Assembly (NCBI GenBank): GCA_963701095.1 | Contig: OY969564.1 | Coordinates: 2,304,001 to 2,368,000, forward strand | Source of the DNA: an uncultured Methanoregulaceae archaeon | GTDB lineage: Archaea > Halobacteriota > Methanomicrobia > Methanomicrobiales > Methanospirillaceae | DNA: 64,000 nt | Reading direction: 5' to 3' | Notes under the pieces: model-generated | What the model saw: only the letters and a program-made list of their open reading frames with translations | What the model was told of the DNA's origin: nothing | The model's database searches: none | Program-made: the position numbers and the translations under genes | Part shown: in pieces, positions 4,123-28,695 of the stretch | How the letters are laid out: every line of letters starts with the position of its first letter | Position numbering within the stretch: position 1 is the stretch's first letter

Positions 4123-4592
4123 TGGTCGAATTTACTCATATTGCAGACGGAATGGCACAGATGGTGGATATCAGCGCAAAATCTGATGTTGTGCGCGAAG
4201 CGGTGGCCACCGGCCGGATTTACCTGCGGCCGGCAACACTTACTGCTATCAAGGAAGGATCCGTTGTCAAAGGGAACGTGCTTGCCACCGCCCGGGTTGC
4301 TGCCACGCTCGCCGTTAAAGAAACACCCCGGATTATCCCTCTGTGTCATACTATTCTGCTTGGTGCCATTACTGTGGACTTTGTCCAATCCGATATGTAC
4401 ATCGAAGCAACGGTGACCACGAAATCCACCGGAAAAACCGGTGTTGAAATGGAAGCCCTAACCGGTGTCTCGGTCGCTCTTCTGACCATCTGGGACATGG
4501 TTAAGTCAGCAGAAAAAGATGAGAACGGCCAGTATCCCGCAACCCGAATCGATGGCATTCATGTCGTCGAGAAACGCAAGGAGTCGCCATAA
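4122..4592 (+). CDS. moaC: cyclic pyranopterin monophosphate synthase MoaC
   Basis: MVDISAK, IIPLCH, TGVEMEAL, WDMVK. Confidence 0.95.
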   Translation: MVEFTHIADGMAQMVDISAKSDVVREAVATGRIYLRPATLTAIKEGSVVKGNVLATARVAATLAVKETPRIIPLCHTILLGAITVDFVQSDMYIEATVTTKSTGKTGVEMEALTGVSVALLTIWDMVKSAEKDENGQYPATRIDGIHVVEKRKESP

Positions 4593-4708
4593 AAGGTCGA
4601 CCTTCGATTAATTTAATATCCCTACTAACATATTCTATAGGACTACGGGATATTGTCCCGTTGAAAGGAATGTAGCCCTTCTGGGCCGAACCTTGAGGTG
4701 TTAATACA

Positions 4709-21093: not shown

Positions 21094-21417
21094 TCATTCC
21101 TGGTTGCCGCTCATTGCCTCGCTCATCTTTAGTTTGATCATCTCCATTGCTTCCTGGATGGTATCCCGGGCATCCTCCCGTTCCATCCGGTAGAGTTTCT
21201 GCAAAGGAGAAAGAGCCCTTGGATCTCCGAGCATGCCCAATGCCCAGGCAGCTTTTAACCGCACCCGAACGTCGTCATCCCACAGGGTGTCAATCAACGG
21301 CTCCACGGCCCGGGTATCTCCCATCCGCCCCAGCGATTCCGCCGCCTTCCACCGCGTCCCCTCGTTATCATCGGAAAGCATTTCGACTAATCCTTCAAGA
21401 GTACCTGGACATCGCAT
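21094..21417 (-). CDS. HEAT (PBS lyase-type) repeat protein
   Basis: R.KAAESLG..GD.RAV.PLI repeats. Confidence 0.85.
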   Translation of the reverse strand: MRCPGTLEGLVEMLSDDNEGTRWKAAESLGRMGDTRAVEPLIDTLWDDDVRVRLKAAWALGMLGDPRALSPLQKLYRMEREDARDTIQEAMEMIKLKMSEAMSGNQE

Positions 21418-21547: not shown

Positions 21548-22006
21548 TCACCGGGCATGTTCGTCATACCATGCCTGGAGCTGGTTCTGGAGCGCTGCGT
21601 TGCTCTTCTCAAGTTCAGCATAAACCTTCTTTATTGCATCCGTAACCGGGCCCGGTAATTGTGCAAAGAGTGCGTCTTTTGCCAGGTCAGTCTGGACCCG
21701 GAGTTTTCCCGTGTCGTCCCTGGTAACGCAGACTTCAAATGAACAGACCCGGTCCAGGGCATCCGCAGGTTTTTCTGCTGCAGTTTCGGTTATTTTGAGC
21801 GCTACCTCGATAGACTTTTTGTTTTTGTCATTGTCGATTTTTAACCGGACGAGGGGAAAATGGGGTACGGCATGAACAAAAAAAGCATCCTTTTCCTTGT
21901 TCACGAAGATCGTATAGTTGAAAACCTCAATCTTTTGTGATGTAATGAGGTAATCCACAAAACTTTTGATAAGATCTGACTGTTTATTGTCGCTCATACA
22001 TTCCAC
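21548..22006 (-). CDS. hypothetical protein
   Basis: 152-aa ORF with protein-like composition. Confidence 0.6.
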   Translation of the reverse strand: MECMSDNKQSDLIKSFVDYLITSQKIEVFNYTIFVNKEKDAFFVHAVPHFPLVRLKIDNDKNKKSIEVALKITETAAEKPADALDRVCSFEVCVTRDDTGKLRVQTDLAKDALFAQLPGPVTDAIKKVYAELEKSNAALQNQLQAWYDEHAR

Positions 22007-22187
22007 CCGGATGACTATTTCTCTGTACAGGTTCTGGTTGATCTCTCATACATAAATTTCCGTGTTCTGCCAAAGTGTCGGAAAGTGATATATCTCTTCC
22101 AGAACGGGATTAAAAAATCACTCCCAAAGACCTCGCAGAACAGTATTTTGGAAGATTTATTATAACAAACGGATTAACAATCAATAG

Positions 22188-22349
22188 ATGCCGGGAAAAG
22201 TGATCGCTGCTCTTTCTGTATACAGCGTTGTGCTGGTCACCTTCTTTCTTACCGGAACTCCATCATTGTGGGCATTTGTTTTCGCTCTAGTAGCCTGCGG
22301 TTTGTGCTATGCCAGCGGTCTGGAAGTCTTTTTGCCGAACGGTTCGTAA
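22188..22349 (+). CDS. small membrane protein (53 aa, not in ORF track)
   Basis: MPGKVIAALSVYSVVLVTFFLTG..WAFVFALVACG; TTTATTATAA upstream. Confidence 0.45.
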   Translation: MPGKVIAALSVYSVVLVTFFLTGTPSLWAFVFALVACGLCYASGLEVFLPNGS

Positions 22350-22370
22350 CGTCCCTGCCGCTGCTGTTTT

Positions 22371-22886
22371 TCACGTTCCAAAGAATGGCAGCGACGGGTT
22401 AAACACAATGATAAGGTAATTTACGTACCCGATCAGGAATGTGAGGATAACGACGACGCTGAGGAGCAGCGTGGCACCGAAAGATACCCTAACGGACTGT
22501 ATCATGGTGGCAAGGAGCATGGCGATTACAAATACACTGGCCAGGATACCCATGAAAGGTGACCTGAGACCGAAGAAAAAATAGCCCCATAACCCTATCA
22601 GGATGATAGCAAAGGCCAGGAAGGAAAGGCAGAGCAACCGGTCATGCTCCTTCATATGCTCCGCATGCCAGATGAAGAGGATTGAACCCCCAAGGAGCAG
22701 GTATGCAATACATACGCCTGTCATAAGCATAAACGTGTCCACGGGAAGAGAGACGGGTTTTATCAGTCCAGCAAACCAGGTGGGGAGAATGGGGAACGCG
22801 AAATACGTGGTGAGCCCTGCAGCAGCAAGAAAAAGCACACCGAGACCAATCAAAGGTCCTATGGGATGGTTCCCTCGTGATGACAT
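22371..22886 (-). CDS. TspO/MBR-like membrane protein
   Basis: Five TMs, WF..L.KP, LW...FFGLRSP..G pattern. Confidence 0.7.
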   Translation of the reverse strand: MSSRGNHPIGPLIGLGVLFLAAAGLTTYFAFPILPTWFAGLIKPVSLPVDTFMLMTGVCIAYLLLGGSILFIWHAEHMKEHDRLLCLSFLAFAIILIGLWGYFFFGLRSPFMGILASVFVIAMLLATMIQSVRVSFGATLLLSVVVILTFLIGYVNYLIIVFNPSLPFFGT

Positions 22887-23042
22887 ATAATTTACTATTG
22901 CAAACGCGCCGGCATAAATGGGTTTTGGAAGAGAATTGCGTCTCTGTAGTCTTCCCTCTATTGACTCTTTTTTTTGAAGAAAGTAAATGTACACTTTGTC
23001 TTTTTGCGATAGTTATATCATCCTCCGACGTGACTTAAGATT

Positions 23043-24317
23043 ATGGCGAAACAATCGCAGAGTCAATCCGGGGGAAGAATCGCCGCATTTGTTAGCTCCT
23101 ACTCTAACAAGAGCACTGGGGGTGGGTATAAGAGTGCCATCGAGTCGTTTCTACGGTGCATTAATGGGCTTCCAAAGGCGAATACGGATGGCACAAGGGC
23201 AAAGTATGACTATGAACTACTTTTCGACGATTACCTTGCTGACAAGAAGCGGAACCATGATGAGGACTTCACGAAGTTTGCTGACTGCCTAAAATCGGAG
23301 TGTGCGAGTCACCAATCAGCCCGGCAGATTATGACAAATGCGAGGCGTATCCTCGAAGACAATGGTGCAAAATTCAAGGGCAAAACCGTCCGGGATTTAA
23401 AGCGGGAGATGAAAGGTGGGGCGGGTACTGTTGACAAGGTTATGACGGCGAAAGTAATCGATACTGTCCTGAAAGAACTCGATATAAAAGGACGAGCAAT
23501 TGTTCTTACCCTTGCCAGTTCCGGAGCCCGGTTAAACGAAATCCTTTCCCTGAAACTCTCCGATATAGACTTTGAAAGCAACCCGATTAAACTCACCCTG
23601 CGAAACACTAAAAACAAACAAACCCGGTTTACCTTCATTAGTTCAGAAGCAACACGAAGTATCCAGGCATGGCTTGAAAAACGTGAACACTATCTCGCAG
23701 GTGCATCCCGCCGAAACGCTGGACTTGTGCGGGCTGGTATCTGCGGGGAAAAAGACGCAAAATCGGATCTCCTCTTCCCTCTAACCGATACAGCCGTTAA
23801 TGCTCTTTGGGAAAATGCACTTAAGACAGCAGGTTTGTATTCGCAGGATGAACAGACCGGACGTAACCAATACCGGATACATTCTTTCAGAAAATTCTTC
23901 ATCAGCCAATTAAGCATGGCAGGTCAGAAAACACTTGCAGAACACCTGGCAGGACATATCGTTTATCTCGATGGTTCATACCGCCGGATTGATGAAGAGG
24001 CGGCTGGGAAGGCATACCTCGCCGTTCAGCACGTCATTACAATCGGTATTCCTCCAGAGTTCCGGGAGAGTGCAACCGAATTAACCGGCAAATTGAAGAT
24101 ACAGGGCGAAAGCATAGAGGGACTGCGGGCGATGAACGAGAAACTTGTCGCCCAAATGGTGAAGTTAGAAGACCAAAACACCACCCTCCAAGAGGATATT
24201 TCGATTATCAAGGAGGAGCAGGAACGGATGCGGCAGCATTACGCTATTATTGACCAATTGATGGCAAAGGACAGTGATGCGCAAGCTATATTCGGCAAAC
24301 TTCTGAAAAACCGTTAA
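23043..24317 (+). CDS. tyrosine recombinase/integrase with C-terminal coiled coil
   Basis: Complete catalytic set: SSGAR(R), NTK(K), HSFR(HxxR), LAGH(H), DGSY(Y). Confidence 0.92.
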   Translation: MAKQSQSQSGGRIAAFVSSYSNKSTGGGYKSAIESFLRCINGLPKANTDGTRAKYDYELLFDDYLADKKRNHDEDFTKFADCLKSECASHQSARQIMTNARRILEDNGAKFKGKTVRDLKREMKGGAGTVDKVMTAKVIDTVLKELDIKGRAIVLTLASSGARLNEILSLKLSDIDFESNPIKLTLRNTKNKQTRFTFISSEATRSIQAWLEKREHYLAGASRRNAGLVRAGICGEKDAKSDLLFPLTDTAVNALWENALKTAGLYSQDEQTGRNQYRIHSFRKFFISQLSMAGQKTLAEHLAGHIVYLDGSYRRIDEEAAGKAYLAVQHVITIGIPPEFRESATELTGKLKIQGESIEGLRAMNEKLVAQMVKLEDQNTTLQEDISIIKEEQERMRQHYAIIDQLMAKDSDAQAIFGKLLKNR

Positions 24318-24441
24318 TGTTGAGATAATCCGCGCGACCAATCTCTTTTATTTTTCACTATTTTCGTTAATGGACATTAATACGTCCCATTATTACTGCC
24401 ACGCATAACCTTTATAGAGTCGATTTTGACAACCTCAATTT

Positions 24442-24840
24442 ATGCAGGTGAGTAATAACGCAATCCCTTACCTGATTGCCCGGTCTGATTTTCAGAAGTT
24501 CAGCCGTTTCTATCAGCTCGCGGCTTTGGCTCTGGAACAGACCGGGAAAGTCCGGATTGTCGATGGCGTCCAACCTTCAACCGTCTCGTCTGCATGTGTC
24601 GCATCAACCGAACCCGCGCCATCCTCAGATGGCTATCGCTACTGTGCCCCGTCCCCAGCTCACGGGGGACTGGTGGCACAAGAGGGGGCGGAAGGGCTGC
24701 CCTTTAGGGCATCCCTTGAAGGTGACGGGGGGTTCATCAGAACCCCCCCAAGAGACGGGCATCAGCCCGTCTCCCTAGGCTACTATAAACTAATTGCCAC
24801 TGACACGTCTGAATATACCATTATGGGGGTTCAAAGATGA
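24442..24840 (+). CDS. small hypothetical protein upstream of Rep; only the first ~45 aa look protein-like
   Basis: CTTTATA about 25-30 nt upstream; stop overlaps the Rep ATG (ATGA); 3' part coincides with hairpins. Confidence 0.5.
   Translation: MQVSNNAIPYLIARSDFQKFSRFYQLAALALEQTGKVRIVDGVQPSTVSSACVASTEPAPSSDGYRYCAPSPAHGGLVAQEGAEGLPFRASLEGDGGFIRTPPRDGHQPVSLGYYKLIATDTSEYTIMGVQR
24618..24798. other. array of five GC-rich hairpins, putative rolling-circle origin
   Basis: GCCATC-ctca-GATGGC; TGTGCC..GTCCCC-8nt-GGGGAC..GGCACA; AAGGG.TGCCC-ttta-GGGCA.CCCTT; GGGGGGTTC-atca-GAACCCCCC; GAGACGGGC-atca-GCCCGTCTC; then TACTATAAAC. Confidence 0.65.
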
Positions 24841-25862
24841 TACCCCCTGAACTGATAAGCCAGATACGGAATGACCCCTTTCTGAATTACCTCATTAATC
24901 CTGTTCTGCGGTTCGATAACTACCTCAACAGCACATCACGTATGCACATAAGGATAAAAGGCATTAAACTGCGATATGCCAATGATGACAGTAACCTTGA
25001 GATTGAGGACATCCAATCGCTTGAACTCGACCTCGGATATCCCCACCGTTGGACAGAACGATACGACCATCACACCCTCTGGAAACTTTACCACCTGCAA
25101 TACTACTACATCGCCCACCCTGATAGGATGCCAAAATACACGATGATGATTACCTTAACGGGCTCTCATGCATCACCGAAGAACCCCACTAAACAGGGAC
25201 TTTCCCATATGGCATACCTGGACAAATTCCATGAATCACACCGGCGAGAGAAAAAGATGGTCGGAAAATACCTCAATACGGTCGATTACCTCTCCATCCT
25301 TGAAGGACACCCTGAAAGCGGCTATATTCACGCTCACGACCTCTATTTCCTCGATAACAGACCTTCTAAAGAGACCCTCGCTCTCATTCAAAACCACTGG
25401 AATAACACTCTCGGCATGGGCTCTGCTGAACATGGCATCAAAATTGAGATTAAGGAGCCAAAGGACTTTCACGACATCAAATCTCTCGTCGCTTACCCTA
25501 TGGCATATATCGGAAAAACCACTATCGGCGACCTCCCCGAATGGACAAAATACGATTTGATATTCAATACCTGCCTGTGGCTATCAGGTCAGCCTAAAAT
25601 TCATGGTGGACTAGGAAAGAGGATTCGAGCCTTCCAGCCATCGCGGTCCCTGTCTGCAATCATGAATCCAACCATAGATAACTCAAATTTTAAGTATGTC
25701 GAAACTACCCTCAAAACGGAGAATGATAACAGGGTCTTACACCAATGTCCCGATTATGATAATAATATTGAACTCTGGATGGATGGTGGCGGAGATAATG
25801 GGCAATGCGACACACTGGATAACTTGATGTGGCAGAAGAAAATTGAAAATATCTCATATTGA
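24837..25862 (+). CDS. HUH rolling-circle replication initiator (Rep)
   Basis: Motif 1 MITLT, motif 2 SGYIHAHDLY (HUH), motif 3 YPMAYIGK (two tyrosines). Confidence 0.82.
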   Translation: MIPPELISQIRNDPFLNYLINPVLRFDNYLNSTSRMHIRIKGIKLRYANDDSNLEIEDIQSLELDLGYPHRWTERYDHHTLWKLYHLQYYYIAHPDRMPKYTMMITLTGSHASPKNPTKQGLSHMAYLDKFHESHRREKKMVGKYLNTVDYLSILEGHPESGYIHAHDLYFLDNRPSKETLALIQNHWNNTLGMGSAEHGIKIEIKEPKDFHDIKSLVAYPMAYIGKTTIGDLPEWTKYDLIFNTCLWLSGQPKIHGGLGKRIRAFQPSRSLSAIMNPTIDNSNFKYVETTLKTENDNRVLHQCPDYDNNIELWMDGGGDNGQCDTLDNLMWQKKIENISY

Positions 25863-25880
25863 TGAGAAAATTTTATGAAA

Positions 25881-26382
25881 TTAGGATTCGTTGCAGTCGA
25901 TATACGTACGACGGCAAAAAAAGATAAAACAAATCGTTGGGAGTATTAAAATTTCAACGAATCCTATAATGGACATATGTGCCCAAAATCCAATTAATTC
26001 CCATATCCCAATCATACCAATTGGAGGGAGGTTTAACAACCATTTTTTCGTACTATCGCCCTTCCTAACGGTTTTACATTCCTCCGGAATTTGTTTTTCT
26101 AATAAAAAAACGACTTTCTCATAACGACAATAGTGCTTTATTATCGTATTTTGACCAAATAACCATCCAATTGATATAGAAATTCCAAATAGGGGAACAA
26201 TTAGAAGCTTTTCTTGAATTAAACTGCAATCAGTACCTCTGAAAATATGCCCCCAATAAGAGTGCACTTGCACCAATAAAAATGCTGAAAAAAACCCAAG
26301 TTAGATTGTCTTGGTGCATTTTCAAATCATTTGCAGAACGCAACTGTTGTTCATGTTGTTTTTCACATAGACCAATTACCAT
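25881..26382 (-). CDS. AT-rich multi-TM membrane protein, cargo (frameshift ~26245)
   Basis: Frame 1 MVIGLCEKQ..DNLTWVFFSIFIGASALLLG joins frame 2 LLIVPLFGISISIGW..LLEKQIP..; convergent with rep. Confidence 0.55.
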
Positions 26383-26942
26383 AATAGTATATTAAAACAG
26401 TAAAATTATTGTTTGTTTGCATGTTATTCCGTAACTTCTGACGTTAACGCATAAATACAAAGTTTATTGAATTATACTTTGTGTTTCTTTGAAAAAAATG
26501 CATAGACCGGTATTCTTGGAGAACCCGATTTTTGTCTGTCCATAAAGAAGGGGAAAAATCTGGTGGAGTGTACGATCGAAAACTCGCTCTTTCGCTGTGC
26601 AAAGGGACATAATCCAGGATTATGATGATCAGAATAATCTTGTTGGTGTAAAAATTCTCAGGGTATTTGACCGGGTAGAATCCGCTAGTCTGAGAACTGT
26701 TAAGGCCGAATCTGCGTAATACAGGATCAGGCCCACTGCAGGAGGTTATTAGATAAACCTGCAGTTGATCAATACCCCGGACTGGAAAGGTTTTCCGAGA
26801 TATTCGTGCGACTCCTTCCGTTTTAAGCACAATCTTCTTGAGATCATCGTAGAGAAAAAAACCCTGTTCACGCTATAATACTGCTGATTTCCTTTTTTCA
26901 TGGCGGATAAGGGTTATGCCCCCGGGGGTATCTGAAAAAAGG

Positions 26943-28088
26943 TTACCCGAGTTTTTCCAGACGCCGGCAGGCCTCGCGGAGGGTCTCTTCCTTTTTGGAG
27001 AAGGTGAACCGGAGTTTTGTCTCTCCCCCCTTTTGACAGAACGAGCTTCCCGGCACTGCCGCAACGCCGACAGACTCGATAAGATAGCGGGCAAAAGCAG
27101 TATCCGTCATCCCGAAGCCGGAGATGTCCGTGAAGATATAGTACGCCCCTTCCGGAAGCTGACAGGAGAATCCCGCTTTCTTCAGGCCGTCGTAGAGAAC
27201 CTGCCGACGGATGGTGTAGTCCCGGGCCAGCCCCTCGTAGTACGTAGAAGGCAGGTCGAATGCGGCAACCGCGGCGTGCTGGAGGGGAGCCGGTGCCCCT
27301 ACCGTGAGGAAATCGTGGATCTTCCTGATGCGTGCAGTCAGCCGGGTATCGGCAACCGTGTACCCCACCCGCCATCCGGTCACGCTGTAGGTCTTCGAGA
27401 GGCTGTTGATGGTGACTGTTCGGTCTTCCATACCGGCAAGCGACCCGATCGAGACGTGCCGGTGCCCATCGTAGAGGATATGCTCGTAGATCTCGTCGGT
27501 AATAGCGATAACGTCGTGCTCGAGGCAGAGGTCGGTAATAAACTGCAGCTCGTTTTTGGAAAAGACCTTCCCGGTCGGGTTGTTGGGGGTATTGATGATG
27601 ACCGCCCGGGTCTTTCCGGAGAACGCCGTTTTCCATGCCTCTTCGTCCAGCGGCCTGCTGCCGTCACCAAGCGGGATATGGCGGGGGACGGCCCCGGAGA
27701 TGACCGCATCCGGCCCGTAATTCTCGTAGAAAGGTTCGGGCACGATCACCTCGTCCCCCGGGTTTACGAGCGCGATCATGGATGCCATCATCGCTTCGGT
27801 AGATCCGCAGGTGACCGTGATCTCCGTTTCCGGGTCCGCCTCTATCCCATTGTACCCCTTAACCTTCCGGGCGATCGCCTGCCGGAGATCCTGTGCCCCC
27901 CAAGTGATCGCGTACTGGTTGTAGTCCCCGGTAATTGCATCGCAGGCAGCCTTTTTGAGTTCGTCCGGGCAGGGGAAATCAGGAAACCCCTGGGCGAGGT
28001 TGATCGCCTCATGTGCGAGGCTCAGCCGGGTCATCTCCCGGATCACGGATTCCGTAAAGACGTCCGCACGGGAGGGTGGAAGTATCAT
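26943..28088 (-). CDS. PLP-dependent aminotransferase class I/II
   Basis: INLAQGFPD, NTPNNPTG, DEIY, SLSKTYSVTGWRVG. Confidence 0.93.
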   Translation of the reverse strand: MILPPSRADVFTESVIREMTRLSLAHEAINLAQGFPDFPCPDELKKAACDAITGDYNQYAITWGAQDLRQAIARKVKGYNGIEADPETEITVTCGSTEAMMASMIALVNPGDEVIVPEPFYENYGPDAVISGAVPRHIPLGDGSRPLDEEAWKTAFSGKTRAVIINTPNNPTGKVFSKNELQFITDLCLEHDVIAITDEIYEHILYDGHRHVSIGSLAGMEDRTVTINSLSKTYSVTGWRVGYTVADTRLTARIRKIHDFLTVGAPAPLQHAAVAAFDLPSTYYEGLARDYTIRRQVLYDGLKKAGFSCQLPEGAYYIFTDISGFGMTDTAFARYLIESVGVAAVPGSSFCQKGGETKLRFTFSKKEETLREACRRLEKLG

Positions 28089-28224
28089 ACTACCTTCTGG
28101 GGCGGCAGAGAGGATAATCTCATCTTTTTTTTTACTGGACCCGTACATGTGGGAACGGGGAAAAACGACCGGTAAATGTTTCAGGAGGATCAAAAAAAAG
28201 GACAGGCTGGAAACATGCCTGCGG

Positions 28225-28695
28225 TTATTCGTTCAAAGGCTGGAATCCCTGTTTGAATACCTTCCCGAACTGAACGCGGATCTTCGGGTCCTGTGCACAC
28301 ACCGGACAGACATAGTCCTCCGGGAGATCCTCGAATTTCGTCCCGGGTTTTATTCCCCGGTGAGGCTCACCGCGTTTCTCGTCATAGATGTAACTACACA
28401 TGGAGCACAGGTACCGGGTTGGCCTCCACTCTTCAAAACCCCATTTTCCTATCTTGCCTTTGCCCTGGTATCCGCACACAGGGCATACATAGTCCTCCGG
28501 GAGATCCTCAAAAGCGGTACCGGCAGGAATGCCATTATGCGGTTCCCCGCGAAGCGGCGAATAGATATATCCGCACATTCTGCACTTGTATCGTAAAGGA
28601 ACACTCTCTTTTTTAGCTGGTGCCTTCTTCTTTGCCGCGGTTGCCGGTTTCTTTTTCACATCGCTTTTTTTCGTTGTTGCTCCTGCTTTTGCCAT
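28225..28695 (-). CDS. double rubredoxin with Lys/Ala-rich N-terminal tail
   Basis: Two Cxx[18 protein letters not shown] units. Confidence 0.9.

Follow-up and report, generated by a model that had tools for sequence, protein, structure and literature searches.

A 3.5-kb integrated, plasmid-like element of probable rolling-circle type in the genome of an uncultured Methanoregulaceae archaeon

Gene content and limits of the element

The window analyzed here, a 64,000-nt stretch from the genome of an uncultured Methanoregulaceae archaeon (contig OY969564.1, positions 2,304,001 to 2,368,000), contains an element of 3515 bp whose four genes encode a tyrosine recombinase, a small protein termed orfS, a predicted HUH-type Rep and a membrane protein. 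A first-pass annotation of this DNA had placed a minimal integrative rolling-circle element of ~3.4 kb at 22990-26450. These limits were close but not exact, as the element extends from position 22969 to position 26483 of the window. All of the components that had been proposed, namely, an intact tyrosine recombinase, a small open reading frame (ORF) translationally coupled to a Rep with the motifs ITLT, HAH and YxxxY, an array of hairpins before rep and one convergent membrane gene, were recovered. The genes are listed below together with the cores at the two ends and the candidate origin motif.

22969-22982, + strand: attL core, left copy of an imperfect 14-nt direct repeat (TTTTTTTGAAGAAA)
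23043-24317, + strand: tyrosine recombinase (integrase), 424 amino acids, with a coiled-coil-like tail at the C terminus
24442-24840, + strand: orfS, 132 amino acids; its TGA overlaps the rep ATG as ATGA
24778-24795, + strand: origin motif GGCTACTATAAACTAATT, an 18-mer, candidate nick region of a double-strand origin
24837-25862, + strand: Rep, predicted two-tyrosine HUH endonuclease, 341 amino acids
25881-26382, - strand: cargo gene, membrane protein of 166 amino acids; the assembly shows two ORFs, 25881-26276 and 26230-26382
26484-26497, + strand: attR core, right copy of the 14-nt direct repeat (TTTCTTTGAAAAAA)

The absence of capsid, conjugation and partition genes had also been proposed, and no match to such families was detected for the four element genes in Pfam, PHROGs, PADLOC or NCBIfam. 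PADLOC returned nothing for any of the four window proteins. PHROGs contained no match for orfS, Rep or the two halves of the cargo gene, virion genes (spike/fusion, matrix and capsid) included, and NCBIfam contained none for Rep or orfS.

Ends of the element and detection of an empty site

The 14-nt direct repeat (TTTYTTTGAARAAA) is identical at 12 of its 14 positions and was the best local direct match between the element ends. With three sister elements (L006, L009 and L017), homology at the DNA level starts at 22966-22970, while at the other side a right end of 60-66 nt is conserved and homology to the sister elements stops at 26499. An inverted sequence pair is located beside each core.

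22980-23012, + strand: left sub-terminal arm, inverted pair AAAGT (22980-22984) and ACTTTGT (22993-22999); candidate integrase-binding arm (P')
26445-26483, + strand: right sub-terminal arm, inverted pair ACAAAGT (26457-26463) and ACTTTGT (26476-26482); candidate integrase-binding arm (P)

The left arm, for which we infer a role in binding of the integrase, is conserved in L006, L009 and L017, and the right arm is conserved at 77-80% identity in L006, L015, L017 and L023. Alignment of the left end with the reverse complement of the right end gave a score of 43, compared with 24 for the right end in direct orientation. A reading of the ends as simple, transposon-type terminal inverted repeats was set aside in favor of a split palindromic recombinase site, with inverted arms and direct-repeat cores; judged from the sequence, inverted arms beside cores have the look of a palindromic site that was split by integration. 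On visual comparison, the two central bases of the core varied among the window element, L006, L009 and L017 and agreed between both ends of each of them.

Contigs, as opposed to raw reads, from four metagenome runs (X1 to X4) were mapped onto the region. A 7239-nt contig from run X1, with a depth of 13.4, covers 26484-28500 and joins position 22968 directly to position 26484. The 20 letters before 26484 in this contig are those of window positions 22949-22968, a string that is unique in the 2.63-Mb genome, and this join is an empty site. Depth in run X1 was 13-13.4 for the flanks versus 8.96 for the element, a difference that fits a mixed population of filled and empty sites. The presence of both filled and empty sites in one sample indicates that the element is still mobile, or polymorphic, in the natural population. 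In run X2, contigs bridged both junctions at an even depth (8-9).

A solo copy of the right end was observed elsewhere in the same genome (C1:1023702-1023768), being 78% identical over 67 nt and including the ACAAA...ACTTTG arm and a core composed of TTTCTTT and an A run. This copy is intergenic, has no int or rep nearby and may be a relic of a lost related element.

Two types of integrase upstream of a common rep-origin unit

The integrase exceeded the Pfam cut-off for PF00589 (Phage_integrase; 52.6 bits against a cut-off of 27.1; E 6e-14), matched the PHROG integrase families (E 2.6e-19) and has all of its catalytic residues (R163, K190, H280, R283 and Y313, in the pattern R..K..HxxR..Y), which were invariant in 12 aligned integrases. 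The gene is therefore intact, as had been supposed. The integrases of L006, L009 and L017 share 80% identity with it. An Xer orthologue was ruled out by a score of 65 bits with NCBIfam XerA, for which the cut-off is 220 bits.

Comparisons between elements were performed on 17 loci with a rep start, consisting of the window, L006-L009, L012-L020, L022, L024 and L025. Loci lacking a rep start or upstream DNA (L010, L011, L021, L023 and L026-L029) were left out, as was L057, which repeats L009. A tyrosine integrase was located upstream of rep in 15 of the 17, the exceptions being L007 and L025, so that int and rep do co-occur outside the window. Searches with tblastn detected the window-type integrase in ten loci at 28-81% identity, giving eleven with the window. 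Four other loci (L008, L012, L013 and L016) have another type of tyrosine recombinase (Pfam E 1e-21 to 1e-23), which is followed by another small ORF of 116-137 amino acids. Elements with this second type sit at the 3' end of a tRNA gene, and 17 nt of the tRNA are duplicated at the far junction in L013 and L016. L012 starts with the same tRNA gene as these two loci, and the anticodon loop suggests that the target is probably tRNA-Thr.

L012:1-130; L013:45-125 and 4250-4290; L016:50-126 and 4581-4598: tRNA-end insertions

The window-type integrase is thus associated with A/T-rich cores and the second type with a tRNA 3' end. As both types are found upstream of the same rep-origin unit, this unit has been combined with integrases of different target choice.

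A Rep clade of the two-tyrosine HUH class

Rep contains the three motifs reported in the first-pass annotation, in the form M-I-T-L-T at 104-108 (motif 1, xTLTx), H165-A-H167 and Y220-x-x-x-Y224-x-x-K227. Residues T106, T108, H165, H167, Y220 and Y224 were invariant in 23 close and 15 wider homologues, and K227 was kept in at least 90% of the sequences. A search of 5.8 billion proteins detected 45 relatives with 42-100% identity, none of which has a name and most of which are on contigs of 1-8 kb. A HMMER (phmmer) scan of 1.84 billion representatives detected 146 relatives at E values of up to 0.001. Sixty distant relatives (phmmer E 1e-20 to 1e-6) were scanned against Pfam; most passed PF23343 (REP_ORF2-G2P) and/or PF07232 (DUF1424), and one was near the cut-off for PF05840 (Phage_GPA). 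The window Rep is related to the PF07232 family although it is not a member by the Pfam criterion, its score of 13.5 bits (E 0.035) being below the gathering cut-off of 23; with PF23343 and PF05840 it gave no match. It reached no Pfam or NCBIfam cut-off and had no PHROG match, so that the close clade is without a model in these three collections. No match was detected with PF01719, the pMV158-type RepB family, and assignment to Rep-Arvir (PF25227) was rejected, there being no match at E values of up to 0.1.

An AlphaFold model of Rep was obtained with a predicted local distance difference test score (pLDDT) of 83 and a predicted template modeling score of 0.80, and its fold was of the HUH type. 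The leading VIA structural matches among 48,161 chains were a Helitron transposase (Z 8.9, 224 residues aligned), the SIRV1 ORF119 Rep (Z 8.1; root mean square deviation of 3.1 over 114 residues) and the adeno-associated virus (AAV) Rep AAV5 (Z 7.0). A separate Foldseek search placed 2x3g first, followed by Reps of AAV, geminiviruses and circoviruses, all with E values above 0.001. The HUH and YxxxYxxK motifs, motif 1 and the modeled fold are those of an HUH endonuclease of the two-tyrosine Rep class, for which nicking activity is predicted.

Elsewhere in the window's genome, 59 nt (C1:670774-670831) match the 3' end of rep (window 25794-25852) at 80% identity and are apparently a relic of a Rep C terminus.

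A candidate origin embedded in orfS

The hairpin array that had been noted before rep is real and consists of four hairpins within 24643-24773.

24643-24680, + strand: hairpin H1, a module common to a genus-specific miniature inverted-repeat transposable element (MITE)
24692-24717, + strand: hairpin H2, from the DNA fold
24727-24748, + strand: hairpin H3, 9-bp stem, loop ATCA
24752-24773, + strand: hairpin H4, perfect 9-bp GC-rich stem, loop ATCA, 4 nt upstream of the 18-mer

The fold of 24600-24800 as DNA had an energy of -56.7 kcal/mol, and a 56-nt segment around H4 had a z of -4.7 relative to shuffled sequences. In all 17 loci, the 18-mer GGCTACTATAGACTAATT was present 40-60 nt before rep, with an exact match in 11, one mismatch in five (the window included) and two mismatches in one. 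Although the Reps of these loci show an identity of only 47-64%, the 18-mer exhibits no wobble variation. This lack of wobble variation indicates a constraint on the DNA itself, even though the motif also forms the end of the orfS frame, where it is read as LGYYRLI. A GC-rich hairpin of 8-13 bp was detected 2-6 nt upstream of the 18-mer in 15 of the 17 loci (z -1.65 to -5.8), being formed by about ten different stem sequences; L012 and L025 are without it. This comparison relied on folds of the individual sequences, as a MAFFT alignment lost the register of the stem. The 18-mer occurs once in the window's genome and was present in 6 of 151 genomes of the family, compared with 1 for a reversed control.

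Taken from their positions and conservation, H4 and the 18-mer are the best candidate for the double-strand origin, which would comprise ~45 nt within the coding sequence of orfS. The likely origin is therefore the last hairpin with the 18-mer and not the array as a whole, as had first been suggested. H2 and H3 could possibly function as an accessory origin or as a single-strand-origin structure.

One locus on a Methanoregula-labeled contig (L007:1100-1250) has three tandem 18-mers upstream of rep, with no integrase and a methyltransferase gene directly upstream, and may be a rearranged or relic copy. An Rfam scan of 22000-27500 reported the cyanobacterial small RNA NsiR9 at 24625-24748 (32.7 bits against a cut-off of 90; E 4e-4). 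This match was considered spurious and most likely arises because GC-rich hairpins are stacked in this region.

orfS is a gene in its own right

The small ORF before rep is, as proposed, probably translationally coupled to it, the stop and start codons of the two genes being overlapped. Three parts were distinguished in orfS: at the N terminus a conserved mini-domain of ~35 amino acids, then a GC-rich linker that varies, and at the C terminus the stretch LGYYKLI, which overlaps with the candidate origin. The frame was kept open in 11 loci. Among the 33 codons of the N-domain, the third position varied in 29 of 33 columns, compared with 16 and 14 for positions 1 and 2, and codon differences comprised 604 synonymous and 412 non-synonymous changes. 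The open frame in 11 loci and the bias of substitutions towards the third position indicate that orfS is a real gene.

An AlphaFold model of orfS had pLDDT values above 90 for about residues 10-40 alone, which form a strand-helix-helix-strand unit. No orfS family was found in Pfam, PHROGs, PADLOC or NCBIfam, Foldseek detected nothing below an E value of 1 with the model, and residues 1-48 had no usable match in the ESM Atlas. A prediction of a complex between Rep and orfS residues 1-48, run without controls, scored 0.01 and counts neither for nor against an interaction. From its position alone, the N-domain protein probably acts in regulation or as an accessory factor. The gene is preceded by what may be an archaeal TATA box, as read from the sequence.

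24411-24416, + strand: TTTATA, ~26 nt upstream of the orfS ATG

Hairpin H1 is shared with a MITE

Positions 24620-24693 of the window, comprising H1 and ~20 nt on each side, matched a dispersed repeat in relatives with 80-88% identity, and T/A to C/G covariation was observed in the outer stem of this repeat. In G153, the repeat belongs to a non-coding unit of ~205 bp with copies that are 89-99% identical and with terminal inverted repeats that begin TGCTCTGTAGAAA. A non-coding unit of this size with terminal inverted repeats is characteristic of a MITE. The core pattern was present in 14 of 31 genomes of the genus (counting that of the window), at 1-20 copies per genome, and in none of 120 genomes of other genera, and the control gave no matches.

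L040-L053 and L076-L087: MITE copies

The window's genome contains the H1 module once, inside the element alone, and the module is also found in the orfS linker of L015. Borrowing between MITE and element could have occurred in either direction. Two other explanations of the dispersed hairpin, which is part of the non-coding ~205-bp MITE, were rejected: a tRNA fragment and a TnpB-type guide RNA, the latter as no adjacent long ORF of that kind was found. Copies of the repeat had no match in Rfam.

The cargo slot downstream of rep

The convergent membrane gene is real but is written as two ORFs in the assembly owing to an extra base at 26236. Contigs of all four runs were without this base, and its removal generates a single ORF of 166 amino acids that is identical to P0189, a protein from a 38.7-kb public contig. 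The absence of the base from all four runs and the intact state of P0189 indicate that the split is an assembly error or, at most, a strain difference. P0189 scored 26.6 bits (E 5.9e-6) with Pfam PF24838 (8xMP, octameric membrane protein), for which 30 bits are required; a precomputed collection table assigns it to PF24838, and 46% of the members of its ESM Atlas neighbor cluster belong to that family (score 0.92). A crude hydropathy scan suggests about three hydrophobic helices. A second base, at 21404, was missing in runs X1, X2 and X4; it is near the 5' end (start codon side) of a HEAT-repeat-like ORF at 21094-21417. The single-base differences at 26236 and 21404 are probably both assembly errors.

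Other elements carried other genes at this position. The cargo of L015 is an FRG-domain protein that matched the PADLOC candidate system PDC-S15 (E 5e-43), L008 and L014 encode PLD-like (DrmC-like) proteins with a matching 260-amino-acid ORF in L013, and L016 has a PIN protein and a DUF3467 protein. Other membrane proteins were found in L017 and L020, and proteins without a family in L006, L018, L019 and L022. Judged from these sequences, a single, exchangeable cargo gene that differs by element occupies the slot downstream of rep.

Distribution of the element and a possible free form

Matches to Rep were detected in 13 of 151 sampled genomes of the family and are patchy in Methanoregulaceae. 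The locus is not fixed, with these counts for the genomes and an empty-site allele in one metagenome. Close matches (E < 1e-90) were restricted to three genomes, namely, the window's, G176 and G140. Copies of rep broken by in-frame stops were observed in G140, G159, G048 and G175. Six of the loci are from genomes, in records titled Methanoregula, Methanoregulaceae or Methanomicrobiales, and the runs containing the element are labeled as soil and wetland metagenomes.

One locus, L025, is a metagenome contig of 1594 nt with an exact terminal overlap of 123 nt, implying a circle of 1471 bp. The circle encodes a Rep (47% identical), the 18-mer and a 79-codon ORF and has no integrase. This arrangement hints at a minimal replicon, in which the rep-origin unit would replicate alone.

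Proposed working of the element and alternative explanations

Gene content, catalytic motifs, the limits of the element, presence/absence polymorphism, synteny, an origin-like motif with a co-varying hairpin and a variable cargo gene were all observed directly. They lead us to regard the element as probably an integrated, plasmid-like element of the rolling-circle type that is still excising or inserting in nature. The tyrosine integrase would recombine the two 14-nt cores, which are flanked on the element side by the inverted AAAGT...ACTTT arms; this reaction would excise a circle and restore the chromosomal site, and in the opposite direction the circle would be inserted at short sites rich in A/T. 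Once circular, the element would express orfS and rep as one translationally coupled unit. Rep would recognize H4 and nick inside the adjacent 18-mer through Y220 and/or Y224, whereupon host enzymes would perform rolling-circle replication, with the upstream hairpins possibly serving in lagging-strand initiation. The orfS N-domain protein would probably act as a regulator or accessory factor, and the slot after rep would carry one exchangeable cargo gene, here that of the 8xMP-like membrane protein. What we infer from the observations concerns the circular intermediate, the site of the nick, the occurrence of rolling-circle replication, what orfS does and how the element passes from cell to cell.

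Several points weigh against this interpretation. The empty site consists of one contig with a 20-nt anchor, plus the difference in depth, and it has a C where attL has a T within the core. This mismatch means that a simple precise reversal does not account for every base, and the crossover point is not fixed. The circular junction (26483 to 22969) was not seen among the contig joints and loose ends examined, but contigs drop rare variants. The circularity of L025 is deduced from an assembly, and the window 18-mer is one base off the family consensus GGCTACTATAGACTAATT. For Rep, the structural matches at Z 7-9 are moderate and in the range where the tool warns of common-fold matches, and the best of them is a transposase and not a plasmid Rep. 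A sequence search of the PDB with a Rep profile gave chance matches alone (E > 0.09). No match was detected by tblastn with Rep in 72,556 plasmid (PLSDB) or 50,697 phage (GenBank) records, and the viral contigs of IMG/VR contained neither a relative of Rep nor an exact 18-mer. We know of no relative of Rep that has been studied experimentally.

An unlikely alternative, though one that conflicts with none of the observations, is that the element is a virus satellite, which would excise and replicate in the same way but would spread solely when packaged in the particles of a Methanoregula helper virus, with the cargo gene modulating infection. Such a life-style would account for the lack of a transfer route of its own, as no capsid, conjugation or partition gene is present, and it would suit the candidate defense genes among the sister cargo (FRG/PDC-S15 in L015, PLD-like in L008, L014 and the ORF of L013, and PIN in L016). 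For the spindle viruses of haloarchaea, small circles that encode a Rep and resemble satellites have been proposed (bioRxiv 10.1101/2025.02.15.638363), but the satellites described there have capsid or ATPase genes and the element has neither. Moreover, no morphogenesis gene or fragment was found among the element genes, IMG/VR viral contigs had no match to Rep or the 18-mer, and no helper virus was identified. A broader version, to which we likewise give little credence, would make the 3.5-4.5 kb elements the methanogen counterpart of phage satellites or shuttles of defense cassettes. The chassis would consist of an exchangeable integrase, an orfS-rep unit with its coding-embedded origin and one hypervariable cargo slot; infection by a helper would trigger excision, rolling-circle amplification and transport in helper particles, and anti-virus or exclusion genes would thereby be carried between Methanoregula strains.

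The HUH protein might instead be a mobilization relaxase or a rolling-circle transposase of the IS91/Helitron type, the 18-mer then being a transfer origin or a transposon end. HUH enzymes act as replication initiators, relaxases and rolling-circle transposases (Kazlauskas et al. 2019, PMC6668415), and the best structural match of Rep was the Helitron transposase (Z 8.9, 224 residues). However, the 18-mer is located inside the element beside rep and not at an element end, and the ends are cores of the integrase type or, in sister elements, a duplicated tRNA 3' end. The 1471-bp circle of L025 has rep and the 18-mer without an integrase, as would be expected of a minimal replicon, and no conjugation family was matched in Pfam or PHROGs; a relaxase or transposase is accordingly quite improbable. 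Least credible, and in our view very improbable, is a relic in decay, in which movement and replication have ceased and whose conserved features reflect recent common descent alone. The single change in the window 18-mer, the solo right end (1,023,702-1,023,768) and Rep C-terminal fragment (670,774-670,831) in the same genome and the broken rep copies in G140, G159, G048 and G175 are all compatible with decay. Against it, correction of the assembly error leaves all four genes intact, no catalytic residue is missing, the orfS N-domain has a substitution pattern of the coding type and an empty-site allele exists beside the filled site in one sample.

Relation to known systems

The first-pass annotation compared the element with pC2A of Methanosarcina acetivorans, and this likeness holds for architecture only. 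Like the element, pC2A (the source of vector pWM321) is a small methanogen replicon with an HUH Rep, a tyrosine-recombinase-like gene and origin motifs near rep; its RepA binds and nicks the plasmid, and the tyrosine-recombinase-like ssrA is non-essential (PMC9569500). In contrast to the element, which is chromosomal with defined cores and an empty-site allele, pC2A is described there as a free plasmid whose ssrA has no defined att. The proposed origin of pC2A is in the 5' coding region of repA and differs in sequence, whereas the candidate origin of the element is within orfS.

As in pMV158, the candidate origin of the element lies beside a GC-rich inverted repeat upstream of rep, and a small gene, presumably co-transcribed in the element, precedes rep, this being the CopG-RepB arrangement in pMV158. 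The 18-mer is 3' of the hairpin in the element but in the loop in pMV158-type origins, and the loops of the element vary between loci. The pMV158 origin string GGGGCTACTACGACC, as given in PMC9569500, shares GGCTACTA and a GAC after it with the 18-mer. Reps of PF07232 (e.g., ORF1 of the alphapleolipovirus HHPV1), PF23343 and PF05840 share with the window Rep the order of motif 1, HUH and YxxxYxxK; the element contains no pleolipovirus structural genes. The Rep-Arvir elements (SNJ2 and relatives, PF25227) are archaeal, bear an integrase, encode a rolling-circle initiator with a hairpin origin and also occur in methanogens, but their initiators are described as Rep_trans-like with a TBP-like, non-HUH fold, whereas the window Rep is of the HUH type (PMC13107129). 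Small size, an integrase combined with a replication or nicking protein and transfer by means of others are also features of pSSVi, pSSVx and bacterial integrative mobilizable elements (in part, bioRxiv 10.1101/2025.02.15.638363). Their replication proteins are unrelated, and the element, at 3.5 kb with four genes, is smaller.

The kind of element is thus known, with HUH Rep plus tyrosine recombinase replicons (pC2A, PMC9569500) and integrase-bearing rolling-circle elements (PMC13107129) as examples. No description of the elements reported here was found in the full-text literature searched, although subscription-only papers and the supplements of PMC6668415 and PMC13107129 could list such Reps. 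Full-text searches for 8xMP or the RipA octameric membrane protein returned irrelevant papers only. What appears to be new is a Rep clade for which the collections searched contain no family model and no representative from a plasmid or virus. An integrative architecture of four genes in Methanoregulaceae, the candidate origin within a coding sequence, the two integrase modules and the exchangeable cargo slot also appear to be new, as does the direct evidence of filled and empty sites in one population.

Methanomicrobiales are the main methane producers of peat and wetlands. To our knowledge, the mobile elements of this order are almost unknown, and Methanoregula is without genetic tools. A four-gene replicon with mapped ends, a candidate origin of ~45 nt and two integrase target choices is raw material for shuttle or integration vectors, as pC2A was for Methanosarcina. 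Exchange of the cargo slot takes place between close relatives, and defense-like genes are often found in it, so that the elements may move such genes within natural methanogen populations. The presence/absence polymorphism in a soil metagenome means that activity can be followed in the field.

Flanking DNA

The element is flanked by two host genes on the reverse strand.

22371-22994, - strand: TspO/MBR gene, Pfam E 5e-9
26943-28193, - strand: class I/II aminotransferase gene, Pfam E 7e-70

An empty site was not detected by synteny in 30 relatives, in which tspO and the aminotransferase gene are not neighbors but are located on different contigs. G+C content was 0.44-0.55 across int, orfS and rep, 0.34-0.40 at ~25600-26800 and 0.59-0.62 in the aminotransferase gene beyond. 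Just to the right of attR, host DNA at 26503-26591 includes a short repeat, of which four further partial copies (36-68 nt, 82-89% identical) are present in the genome. A relative without the element (L054, G003:C13) has the sequence GAAAGTAAACTTTC, a near-match to the end of the L014 element, upstream of tspO and ~300 nt beyond the TspO homologue; it could represent an att-like site or what is left of another family member in the same neighborhood.

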